The position numbers and the translations under genes were made by a program. From NCBI GenBank assembly GCA_964016885.1, contig CAXHJY010000157.1:1-64000 (forward strand): DNA of 64,000 bases, given 5' to 3'. This DNA comes from Eledone cirrhosa (Eukaryota). Shown in pieces: positions 12,236 to 57,540 of the stretch. The first letter of the stretch is position 1; each line of letters begins with the position of its first letter. The notes below the pieces were generated by a model. It did not search any database and was not told where the DNA came from. It saw nothing but the letters and a program-made list of their open reading frames with translations.

Positions 12236-13124
12236 ATATCTATATTATATCTGTATTTTTGACCGTTGGTCAGTCAATGGTAAATATTGAGGACCGAATG
12301 AATTAACTGTGGAGATATAAAAGATATAGAAACGAAAACCAACCAAACAGTGAGTGTGTTCTCTTATTATTTCTGGTAATATTATTACAACAATATGACC
12401 CTCCCCAAGTACAATATTTGTTTCGACACACGATTTTTTTTATATATATATATATATACATAGGACCCCGATGGCTGAGCTCAAGGCGTTTCGACGGCTA
12501 ATTCTGGACTAATTTAGTCCAGAATTAGCCGTCGAAACGGCTTGAGCTCAGCCGTCGGGGTGCTACTCGTTCCTATATATATATAAATATATATATATAT
12601 ATATATATACATATATATATATATATATATATATATATATATATATATATATATATATATATATATATATATATACATATATATATATATGATTACATAT
12701 GTGAGTGTAGGTGTGTGTCTGTGTACTTATAAAGCCTTACTACTACCAAAACTGGGGACACAAACTGTTCAAGAGTCATTCATACAGTTTCCTCCTACCC
12801 AATTTCATTCTCAAGGCCTGAGTCAACATGCGGTAATCGTAGAGAGACAGAATGGGTCACAGGATGACTAAGTAGCGAATTTCGTAAGAACAAAACAATT
12901 CATGTAAAACCTTTACATATAATTCCACTATAAATCTTCCCATAATTCAAACATATAGTTATATTGGTCATGTCCTAATATTGCCAAAAATACTAAAACA
13001 CTCTCACTGTTTGGTTTGGGTTAGATTTCGCTTCAGTATATTTTCATATTTTTATAAATAATTCAGCTGGCAATCAATCTTTATCATTGATTGACCAAAA
13101 GTAAAAAATATAAATATAAAGATA
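12236..13124. mobile_element. old MITE-like element with ~160-bp diverged terminal inverted repeats
   Basis: 12236-12396 aligns by eye with the reverse complement of 12961-13124 (aaccaaacagtgagtgtgtt / aacactctcactgtttggtt; ttggtcagtcaatg / cattgattgaccaa). Confidence 0.6.
12461..12573. mobile_element. fold-back Penelope-type mini-insertion (family H) in (TA)n
   Basis: Near-perfect hairpin; the arm contains GAAA-cggct-tgagctc-agccg-TC, the 3' half of an HHR. Confidence 0.8.
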
Positions 13125-13973
13125 AGTTCTTTCCTCCCATATCTGAGGCATCTGCAGAACTCGCAAAATAAATACATCACCGCCACAATTCCAGTATAAC
13201 GTATTCAGATAATTTATTGTTAAGATATAAAATTTGCTATAAACCCCCTGTCATTGAATTGAAAAGATATTATAGCTCTGTAGATTCAATCATGGGATAA
13301 TTTTGCGTCGATATAGGTGTTCAAATTAATAATATAATATATAATTATATTGCTTTCAGGTATCAGATATTGGGTTTACTGAGATGACCATAGAACAAAT
13401 TGGTATTTTTTACTGTAGTAATGCATGGTTAGGTACATGGCTTCTTTTATTAACACTAAAATGGTTTCTGGCTATATTAGACAATAGATCTGCGAGGCGA
13501 TTAGACCGAACAATATGTTTACGTTGTTTAGCTATTGTATCAATTCATAAAACCTCCTTCGTCACAGCAGATTTCTGTTATAATAGATTGGTGACTGATC
13601 AAATATTCACCTGTGTTTCACAATACATTAATGTTCGTAGCCTGCCCCAGCTGAAACATTTAAAGTCATGTATAATGGTAGATATTTGTGAAGTTAAGAG
13701 AAATTACTTTAATAACTATTAGTATGTAGCAGACACCACGTCTGTGAGACCATAACGCTAGGCTACTATAAGGTATAATAAATACCTGCTTGAGTAACGT
13801 GGGTGTGGAGTATATATTTCAAATAAAATAACGACTCAGCTTATACATATATGCATATATGTATCCTTACACACACACACACACACATATATATATATAT
13901 ATATATATATATATATATATATATATATATATATATATATATATATATATATATATATATATATATATAATAC

Positions 13974-14142
13974 AAGGACCATTGGTTACTCCTTCATTAC
14001 GTTTATTGGTTGGTGACGCGCGTTTCGCTATTTTTGATTCCAGAGTCGGGCTAGATCGATACAGATCGAACCTTCAGCTGATCAGTAGCGAAACGCGCGT
14101 CACCAACCAATAAACGTAATGAAAGAGTAACCACTCGTCCTT
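13974..14142. repeat. inverted repeat (~57-bp arms) next to (TA)n, containing an HHR 3' half
   Basis: 13974-14030 versus 14086-14142; GAAA-cgcgcg-TC followed by aataaa. Confidence 0.85.
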
Positions 14143-14159
14143 CTATTATTATTATATTA

Positions 14160-14350
14160 GGAAGATGGATTGACTGTACAGGTAGAGGGTCGGACGCCAT
14201 GCTTTGCAGCATTGAGTTACGTTCCTCTGCGGTCTGAGTTCAAATCTTGAGGTTAACTTTGCCTGGCATCCTTACGGAGTCGATAAAATAAAGTACCAGT
14301 AATGTACTGGTGAATGTGTTGGTCTTGTGCCAAAAGGTAGAGACAATTAT
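14160..14350 (+). mobile_element. SINE family A
   Basis: gagggtcggacgccatgctttgcagc...gagttcaaatc...gtcgataaaataaagtaccag. Confidence 0.85.
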
Positions 14351-15160
14351 TATTATATTACACCCTGTCTAGCTCTAGACCTTCATACTAACGTGAACCT
14401 AAACATCGAGTGCTCACCCGGGTGAACCTACAGTAACTCCCTGGATATATAGATATATATATATATATATATATATATATATATATATATATATATGTGT
14501 GTGTGTGTGTTTATGTATATGAATCCATTATATATACATGTATATATATATATATATGTATGTATATATATATATATATATATATATATGTATATATATA
14601 CATATATATATATGTATATATATACATATATATATATATATATATCTATATATATATATAGGAACGAGTATATATATATATATATATATCCATACATATA
14701 TATATATACACAGAGAGAGGGAGAGAGAGAGAGAGAGAATGAGAGAGAAACATGAAGGGGATCTGCTTCGTAATGGACGCCAACTAAAGATACCTTAAAA
14801 TCTGTGGATACAACAATGAATGAAGTAAGATTACTGCCATGAAAAAAAGTTAGTGGATGCACTTAACATCTTCCGTCTTCTATAGAGATATATTTTTATT
14901 ACCTAGGTTTGCTACTATGCAATTTGCCAAATTATGTAGCAGATTGATAATACATTGCCAACTACTAACTTTTTCCTTCACACACTTCCTGAATACTAAA
15001 ATATTCGAAAATACAACTGCTGACACTCTTACACGCAAAGAAACACACACACACACACACACACACACACACACACACACACACACACACACACACACAC
15101 ATATATATGTATATATATATATATATGAGGAGCGAGGCGTCTATATATATATATATATAT

Positions 15161-15335
15161 ATAACGAAGGAAATGTGGTAAGGAACCAGGTGGACCATAA
15201 CGCACCAAAGTACTCAATACTTGAGGTAGTAGAGTGGGTAATAGCCCCGACAGCTGAGCTCAAGCCGTTTCGACGGCTAATTCTGGACTAGTCCAGAATT
15301 AGCTGTCGAAACGGCTTGAGCTCAGCTGTCGGGGC
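15161..15335 (-). mobile_element. family H fold-back insertion with 3' tail
   Basis: ataacgaaggaaatgtggtaagg tail plus hairpin centred on ctggactagtccag; flanked by TA on both sides. Confidence 0.85.
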
Positions 15336-56084: not shown

Positions 56085-56377
56085 TTCCAGCTCTGCGCAC
56101 CTAACTTCTGCATGAACCCAGCCACCTAGCTGCTTTCTACTGAATATTGCACATTGAGCACATGCCTTTACGCTTTGGCTTCTAACTAACTCACCAATCT
56201 TTCTTCTCATATCTACTCTACTATCTCCATCTTTCTCTTTAAGATTGGTTACTCTTGAACTGTGTATATATATATATATATATATATATATATATATATA
56301 TATATATATACAGAGAGAGAGAGAGAGAGAGAGAGAGAGAGAGAGAGAGAGAGAAAGAGAGGGAGACAGAGAGATAT

Positions 56378-56560
56378 GCTTCTACTTTTGGCACAAAGGC
56401 CAGCAATTACCCCCAATGCGTTACTGGTGCATTATTTCATCAGTCCCGTAAGGATGAAAGGTAAAGCTAAGCTCGGTGGGATTTGAACTCAGAACGTAAT
56501 TGGTCACAACTCTACGCTGTAAAGCATGGCGCCAGACGCTCTACCAATTCTGCCAAACCA
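56378..56560 (-). mobile_element. SINE family A
   Basis: Recognisable copy between (GA)n and (GATA)n. Confidence 0.85.
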
Positions 56561-56569
56561 TGATGGATG

Positions 56570-56671
56570 GATAGATAGATAGATAGATAGATAGATAGAT
56601 AGATAGATAGATAGATAGATAGATAGATAGATAGATAGATAGATAGATAGATAGATAGATAGATAGATAGA
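56570..56671. repeat. (GATA)n microsatellite
   Basis: Directly visible. Confidence 0.95.
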
Positions 56672-57338
56672 CGTGTGTAAGCATCTGTCGATATATTGTG
56701 TATACAAGTTTACATACACCGGCACTTAAAAGTATATCAGCATTTTCTGAAGTCAAAGGTATGCGCCAGTGTTACATCTTTTATATTATCAATGGCGGAA
56801 CATTGCAATGCAATTGAAATCACTGCTGTATCACCATTACACACCAACTTGTCTTCGGCACGAATAGAGAAGAAAACAGAAAAAGAATAAATATAAAACC
56901 TATTTTAAATACAACTACTGCCTCTATATTTTAATATATCTTCTGTAGATTTAGAAGATTGATAGAATAAAAAACATACATACACACAAGCGCTCATATA
57001 TGTATATATATATATATGTATGTATGTGTGTATGTATATATGTATCTATGTATGTATATATATATGTGTGTGTATGTATTTACGTATGTATATATATATG
57101 TATGTATCAGTATGCTTATATGTATCTGTCTGTGTATGTGTACACATATAAGAAATCATATTAAGAATGAACATGTTTGCAAATATGTTATAAGGTTACA
57201 CTTATATACGGTATATATTACCACCCCCACCTCCCCACACACACACATACAAACACACACAAATATATATATATATACATATATATATATATATATATAT
57301 ATATATATATATATATATATATATATATATATATATAT

Positions 57339-57540
57339 AACGAAGGAAATGTGGTAAGGAACCAGATGGACCATAACGCACCAAAGTACTCAATACTTAG
57401 GGTAGTAGAGTGGGTAATAGGAACGAGTAGGACCCCGGCGGCTGAGCTCAAGCCGTTTCGACGGCTAATTCTGGACGCATTGAGTCCAGAATTAGCCGTC
57501 GAAACGGTTTGAGCTCAGCCGTCGGGGTCCTACTTGTTCG
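57339..57540 (-). mobile_element. family H fold-back insertion, most complete copy
   Basis: Tail plus hairpin with loop gcattga; flanked by TA. Confidence 0.85.

Follow-up and report, generated by a model that had tools for sequence, protein, structure and literature searches.

The window analysed here (64,000 nucleotides of Eledone cirrhosa DNA, assembly GCA_964016885.1, contig CAXHJY010000157.1, positions 1 to 64,000 of the forward strand) contains seven copies of a short sequence carrying the 3' half of a hammerhead ribozyme, mostly as two arms inverted head to head in TA-rich DNA. These copies are almost certainly stubs of a Penelope-like element (PLE) of the Hydra type. With a probability that we put at roughly 0.6 for the full mechanism, the stubs would be formed by two-ended priming of reverse transcription on one RNA, both products running off at its 5' end. 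An earlier note on the same DNA had instead proposed that the reverse transcriptase (RT) stalls at a ribozyme hairpin and that the complementary DNA (cDNA) snaps back to copy itself. Positions below are counted from the G that opens GCCGTC-GAAA, which is position 0 and corresponds to window position 33201 in the copy at 33137.

A genome-wide search was carried out on 3.0 Gb in 1,796 contigs. A 22-mer core of the arms gave 54,367 exact matches and its reversed control gave none, so that the abundance of the core is far above chance. The first 100 core matches, chosen without regard to their 5' side, served as the sample for arm ends, and these ends were concentrated at one hot spot. A complete hammerhead was matched 1,104 times, and since this pattern covered one subfamily, the 50-fold drop from 54,367 is overstated; the figure to use is the one obtained from the 100 arms below.

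The parent was reached through L004, one of the 30 best genomic matches, which runs on upstream without inverting. Its flank, used as a query, gave copies with the 5' half of the hammerhead followed by a 3' untranslated region and an endonuclease frame. L129 has an open frame of 786 residues, from the hammerhead region through the tail, with the first Met at 68. The parent unit is 3.54 kb long, and tandem arrays show a repeat unit of 3,542-3,543 bp. Such arrays (L246-L250; G000 C1:91.47-91.49 Mb, C1:437.20-437.21 Mb and C2:11.10 Mb) are 95-100% identical to one unit, and the array L247 continues into a 55-bp satellite derived from the open reading frame (ORF).

The encoded protein, P0001 (786 aa from stop to stop), is a single ORF in which an RT (YRDD at 415) is followed by a C-terminal GIY-YIG endonuclease (IY..YIG at 659-675). 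It also contains RWR at 104, DKT at 184 and a linker CNCPDRSIC at 639 (CxCx5C), while CNLC at 737 and CKH at 765 flank E and N. No CCHH was found, the GIY-YIG core having one Cys only. RW[KR] was present in 48 and DK[TS] in all of 50 aligned homologues, and 660 homologues reached E <= 1e-20 among the 7,998 scored. A Pfam search of P0001 returned no family; among the 50 homologues it gave a weak GIY-YIG in three and RVT_1 in one, and the atlas neighbours of P0001 bear GIY-YIG and RVT_1 families. No match was obtained in a PDB sequence search with the 50-protein profile. By its sequence P0001 holds every protein motif given for the Hydra clade by Craig et al. The flanks of the window copies and of the genomic loci are (TA)n, the target of the element. 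The link to a PLE with an RT/GIY-YIG ORF, foreseen in the earlier note, is thus borne out by long direct copies that carry the frame.

As far as the accessible text of Craig et al. (2021; PMC8557442) describes them, endonuclease-bearing PLEs of the Hydra clade, including Hydra-1_Obim, share with our family the single ORF, RWR, DKT and the CxCx5C linker, a GIY-YIG without CCHH, CxxC and CxH around E and N, (TA)n targeting and a hammerhead at the unit boundary. The family differs in its unit of 3.54 kb, as units in the clade are mostly under 3 kb, and in its 80-nt tail and tens of thousands of stubs, which set it apart from the clade as described there. Its hammerhead has a U3-A8 or C3/A8 core, a long stem II and a stem III of 5-6 bp, whereas the Hydra hammerheads listed in the same source have CUGAnGA. 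This hammerhead is unlike that of Hydra-1_oBim, and therefore we regard the family as separate.

In the parent, stem I pairs CCCC with GGGG and, distally, GGAA with UUCC. The long stem II has imperfect pairing, stem III is closed by a palindromic loop, and cleavage is predicted between +28 and +29. Minimum-energy folds of four subfamily copies gave type I topology for L115 and L129 and failed to do so for L075 and L082. The features seen in the fold are three stems round the core, G10.1-C11.1, GAAA and the UH site. The reading of the shared strand as a hammerhead 3' half was upheld, with a type I fold and the apex of the insertions in stem/loop II. In 12 copies, which are 89% identical, 93% of cells were paired, a share reached by 72 of 500 shuffles.

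The cores of 79 long copies, a set skewed toward one subfamily, read CTGAGAAG in 46, TTGAnAAG in 26, CTGATAAG in one and otherwise in six; position 7 takes all four bases and A8 is constant. The parent core is thus U3-A8 or C3/A8, the latter a mismatch. The earlier note had correctly found CUGAnGA absent from the window copies and counted its absence from full-length relatives against its own proposal. Taken to the letter that point goes against it, because none of the 79 long copies has the canonical core, but the fold persists as a U3-A8 variant. U3-A8 is a published variant of PLE hammerheads, according to the accessible text of PMC4209133. The noncanonical core is a variant inside the Hydra clade and not another protein class. 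A search for CTGANGA upstream of the core gave 31 matches, and the 20 examined were chance apex or junction sequence or pieces of other families. These 20 loci were excluded from the counts of the parent base at -13, of junction inserts and of the 203 stubs given below, and are included in the set of 94 pairs.

The 5' ends of the 100 sampled arms were found 0-18 nt upstream of position 0 in 80 cases, at 26-73 nt in four and at 233 nt or more in 16. The hot spot therefore lies 0-18 nt upstream of the 3' strand of stem II, with modal ends at -11 and -12. Two 3' ends were observed, 80 nt apart, at +46 in untailed arms and at +126 in tailed arms, and the parent has TAT after each; 48 of the 100 arms end exactly at +46. 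Behind the +46 and +126 ends, at 22 and 20 nt respectively, lies a twin motif that has no other occurrence in the unit. Its second occurrence, 20 nt past the tail, is present in the parent and absent from the stubs. We infer that the twin motifs are RT start signals. Eight copies (L163, L164, L167, L169, L170, L172, L183 and L190) end 190-240 nt past the anchor, beyond the tail, which suggests that additional minor starts exist close to the first Met. At six loci (L097, L031, L044, L049, L032 and L033) the stub 5' ends are fused to other repeat families, some of them with PLE endonuclease sequence.

The hot spot in stem/loop II, the copy at 30450 that folds on stem III and a weak upper hairpin in the parent are what a stall of the RT at the ribozyme hairpin, followed by snap-back of the cDNA, would account for. 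The ends, however, lie at the top of stem II and not at the base of a helix, that is, after its 3' strand has been copied. Among 203 stubs, 190 adjoin another stub or a tail piece, 13 unrelated DNA and none a long arm. If a stall acted on each arm alone, a long partner would be expected for roughly one in five stubs. Of 17 tail-to-ORF junctions that are followed by at least 1.6 kb of ORF (four from one array), 14 pass the hammerhead and none stops in the hot spot. Because no stub has a long partner and ORF-crossing copies pass the site, it is more plausible that the template itself sets the end. A stall also does not predict the extra G described next, and the arm asymmetries described further below apply to it too. 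This part of the earlier proposal therefore appears very improbable.

A further line of evidence is an untemplated G at the modal end. The parent base at -13 is T or C, with no G in 81 cases. Genome-wide, 27,951 arms reach -12, and the base at -13 was G in 5,420 and A in 890 of them; one base further, at -14, G was found in 422 and A in 1,336 (odds ratio 19). Junction inserts gave 11 G and one A; one (L054) of the six parent references used for them was mis-anchored, which adds noise to the parent-next-base column and leaves the genome-wide counts unaffected. The base at -12 is an A with a TATA-like box 29-31 nt upstream. We take this A to stand in an initiator-like context. An additional G at the modal end is what cDNA synthesis running off a capped RNA 5' terminus should leave. 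In the accessible texts, an untemplated 5' G is attributed to cap copying in L1/SVA (PMC3287187) and an internal promoter is described in Penelope of D. virilis (PMC2377424).

The same two-ended priming could also meet a processed, uncapped RNA end at the hot spot, left by a nuclease cut in loop II or by a splice-acceptor intermediate, with the G derived from partner arms. The parent does have an AG here, preceded by a stretch of pyrimidines, partner arms explain part of the G's, and full-length copies ending at the hot spot are lacking. Against this, the G:A ratio flips 19-fold from -13 to -14, uncapped ends at the ribozyme cut are almost without G, and the stubs retain the AG. We consider a processed end quite unlikely. 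A splicing origin of the hot spot was discarded, as a fixed upstream exon is absent.

The ends at the ribozyme cut were found as arms meeting near +29, with 151 matches in one subfamily, representing about 75 insertions. All of the first 40 insertions have one tail. Both arms end exactly at +29 with an untemplated spacer in 22 of them, six are blunt and hence ambiguous, one arm does so in six and neither in six; at non-blunt junctions, 50 of 68 arms end precisely at the predicted bond. In the 22 insertions with a spacer, the base adjoining the arm ends was T in 25, A in 15 and G in four cases. Judged from the genomic copies, this class agrees with run-off at an uncapped end made by the ribozyme and supplies an internal control for the G.

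The pairing of arms follows a simple rule. Exactly one arm is tailed in 92 of 94 pairs (a mix of unselected and selected loci) and two tails occur in none; long inverted insertions likewise have one tail wherever both ends were captured. For seven of nine further long arms, no partner was found within 10 kb. The subfamily haplotype of the two arms agrees in 62 of 69 pairs, compared with 24% at random. Among arms of one haplotype, 15 of the 66 that are tailed have A at +45, the base before the short end (e.g., window 33137 and 33246), as do 6 of the 54 without tail, and the arms within a pair often disagree at this position. Of 81 arm records from insert-free junctions, 51 show microhomology of 1-4 nt; where inserts occur, they are rich in A/T or duplicate sequence close by, which would be in keeping with end joining. 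The 48 junctions include 47 distinct strings, in support of the earlier view that each insertion arose independently.

The one-tail rule, the matching end class and the matching haplotypes would jointly be accounted for if a single tail-primed cDNA ran off the 5' end, folded back and copied itself, with nuclease resolution setting the untailed end and later deletions making the arms unequal. In the accessible texts, PMC3846280 puts forward self-priming to explain the palindromic junctions of PLEs, and PMC8557442 invokes resolution by a nuclease to explain the tail. This account, and with it the snap-back of the earlier note, is at odds with the lengths of the arms. In 62 unselected pairs the untailed arm reaches at least 5 nt further 5' in 18 and the tailed arm in 11, and in seven the arms have no shared sequence at all. 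In long insertions (L106, L147, L148 and L248-249) the untailed arm extends over 2.5-3.3 kb or 4.6 units and the tailed arm over a few hundred bases or less. Some spacers of the cut-site class consist of one base, with both arms ending at the same base; such a spacer is too short for a hairpin loop and counts against fold-back copying. Seven pairs have discordant haplotypes. Variants private to one insertion were mirrored in both arms once and one-armed 34 times in 52 pairs, most of them being post-insertion mutations of little weight. Substitutions mirrored in both arms are subfamily variants: the one at 30450, which the earlier note took as copy-specific, belongs to a haplotype found in 17 of the 94 pairs and in the ORF-bearing copy L129. 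Deletions in the palindromes after insertion could create part of the asymmetry, which for that reason only weakens snap-back; overall we regard self-copying as rather unlikely.

Stubs outnumber long arms about four to one and retain a possible initiator, as might be expected of a self-propagating non-autonomous family, similar to a short interspersed element or a miniature inverted-repeat transposable element (MITE), copied from the stubs themselves. However, 47 of the 48 junctions are unique, the outer ends are unequal and are not terminal inverted repeats, and the stub haplotypes equal those of ORF-bearing copies. Stubs also lack the motif found in the parent behind the tailed end, although its role as a start signal is itself deduced. 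Such a family is very improbable here. A MITE or DNA transposon was rejected on the unequal ends and variable apex, target duplications being unreadable in (TA)n. A retrozyme without long terminal repeats was likewise rejected, as the stubs have half a hammerhead and the tandem arrays consist of ORF-bearing 3.54-kb units.

In the two-ended priming that we favor, both ends of a cut (TA)n target would prime RT on one shared RNA, where two fixed positions serve as starts, and the two cDNAs would run off its 5' end. The main RNA would be capped and start at the A 12 nt upstream of GCCGTC, in loop II, about 30 nt behind the TATA-like box; with such a start it would be without the ribozyme 5' half. 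A small fraction of templates would be read-through RNAs that the hammerhead has cleaved at GUC/G. End joining would then link the 3' ends of the two cDNAs, in many cases after trimming or A-tailing, and multimeric or circular RNA would be the source of long copies. In L1 twin priming, two target ends prime one RNA and an inversion results. The seven tail-only arms found here are similar, but in our family one and the same stretch of 60 nt is usually present in both arms, and the second start is fixed.

Several observations weigh against this mechanism. None of the 17 junctions is that of a full-length copy ending at the presumed start, and therefore a second template pool must be assumed; the lack of full-length copies ending at -12 would be accounted for only if the templates of long copies are multimers or circles, a proposal made in the accessible text of PMC4209133. 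About half of 24 local G's could derive from the end of the partner arm or from a templated insert, and C is also frequent at -13. T's extend many arms to -13 to -16, perhaps by A-tailing or slippage or because a second start lies at -16. In the C3/A8 subfamily the TATA-like box is weak, and the search pattern itself required the box. The cut-site class makes up, at a rough estimate, 1% of its subfamily, as judged by a search confined to one subfamily and blind to ends 3' of the cut. No compensatory pairs were seen among the 12 close copies (89% identical), and in Rfam the window and five long copies gave, among the matches listed, only microsatellite-driven microRNA matches and no hammerhead. 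Finally, haplotypes mismatch in 7 of 69 pairs and a C/A mismatch precedes the short end in 10 of 67, and therefore some pairs may use two RNAs.

A wider combination of a promoter inside the hammerhead, a half-ribozyme messenger, circular templates for long copies and double-ended integration can be put forward only tentatively, at well below even odds. With the TATA-like box in stem II, the messenger would start in loop II; it would therefore hold half a ribozyme and could not cut itself. Read-through RNA would fold the whole ribozyme, be cut and circularised, and template the long copies, and integration would be double-ended by design via the twin RNA signals behind both start sites.

In the window, one copy used as a BLAST query gave 13 arm matches, all inside the seven sites of the earlier note and none elsewhere, so that its count of copies stands. 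The copy at 33137..33326 is a typical pair, with an untailed arm on the minus strand (33137-33188) and a tailed arm on the plus strand (33190-33326), and its arms show a C/A difference at the base preceding the short end. Its hammerhead 3' half (33201..33233, plus strand) comprises the 3' strand of stem II, GAAA, stem III, GUC and the 3' strand of stem I. The cut is predicted between 33229 and 33230 from this sequence, the parent folds and the cut-site class elsewhere in the genome. The 80-nt tail (33247..33326, plus strand) spans the two fixed 3' ends and contains the first twin motif at 33269-33281.

The copy at 12461..12573 is a rare pair without tail, with both untailed arms head to head and the apex in loop II. 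At 15164..15335 a tailed arm on the minus strand (15164-15289) is joined to a shortened untailed arm on the plus strand. The copy at 29535..29594 (minus strand) is a lone untailed arm without partner, flanked by TA runs. The pair at 30450..30585 is fused on the natural stem III palindrome, in line with the inversion noted there earlier, and has its tailed arm on the plus strand and the L129-type haplotype in both arms. The pair at 50704..50890 belongs to an older subfamily (untailed arm minus, tailed arm plus). At 57340..57541 a tailed arm on the minus strand (57340-57476) is followed by an untemplated 7-nt apex and an untailed arm on the plus strand from A57483; the G at 57482, directly before that arm start, is untemplated. 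The tail was thus recovered in the five copies reported to have it (15164, 30450, 33137, 50704 and 57340), and the five inversions said to lie near one point, with differing apexes, fall 6-17 nt upstream of GCCGTC-GAAA.

Other fold-back elements occur in the same window. Next to the arm at 29535, the segment 29600-29725 (minus strand), with a related piece near 33430-33530, belongs to another family and contains by eye a canonical CUGAUGA...GAAA hammerhead. The fold-back at 13970-14146, from an unrelated family, is unequal at its outer end and includes a half that resembles a hammerhead (GAAA / stem III / GUC). The fold-back stub at 47632-47802 lies in (TA)n and has longer relatives (L004, L032) with a GIY-YIG-like frame of another PLE family. 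Further inverted-arm elements were seen at 53782-54177 (with a 24-nt piece directly duplicated at the apex), 22126-22639, 45221-45583, 21586-21772, 28659-28752 and 53591-53691.

An inverted 5'-truncated copy with a one-sided tail is a published PLE layout (PMC8557442, PMC3846280), and our stubs share its head-to-head arms, palindromic junctions and tail at one end. The accessible parts of these sources leave the mechanism open or invoke self-priming, and describe no fixed truncation point, extra G or cut-site ends. The Poseidon_Ac protein cuts and extends both strands in vitro, and its two internal starts bound the tail (Frangieh et al., 2024; PMC11167929). As in our family, its target is AT-rich, two RT starts bound a tail and a hammerhead lies at the junction of pseudo-long terminal repeat (pLTR) and ORF. 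Poseidon_Ac belongs to another clade, however, and its study has no reads ending at the ribozyme site and no inverted-arm model. Hammerheads of PLE pLTRs, including the Schistosoma U3-A8 form (Cervera and de la Pena, 2014; PMC4209133), share the type I topology, U3-A8 core and palindromic loop III, and occur in opposite-strand pairs with a proposed circular template. The accessible text of that paper states that evidence of in vivo cleavage is absent, whereas some genomic copies here end at the predicted cut. A literature search, with subscription journals mostly outside it, found no paper tying PLE stub ends to a cap or a ribozyme cut.

The origin of the inverted arms and one-sided tail of PLEs, and in vivo cutting by their hammerheads, are stated as open in PMC11167929 and in the accessible parts of PMC8557442 and PMC4209133. 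This family supplies exact coordinates that can be tested: the RNA would start, capped, at -12 and be cut at +29, reverse transcription would begin at +46 and +126, and the twin motifs lie at +68 and +146. The results suggest that this genome's short palindromes of this kind, tens of thousands in number, arose as dead-end by-products rather than as MITEs, a point of relevance to the annotation of repeats. If the wider combination set out above is true, the stubs would record in the genome where a capped RNA begins and that a hammerhead with a noncanonical core cuts in vivo.

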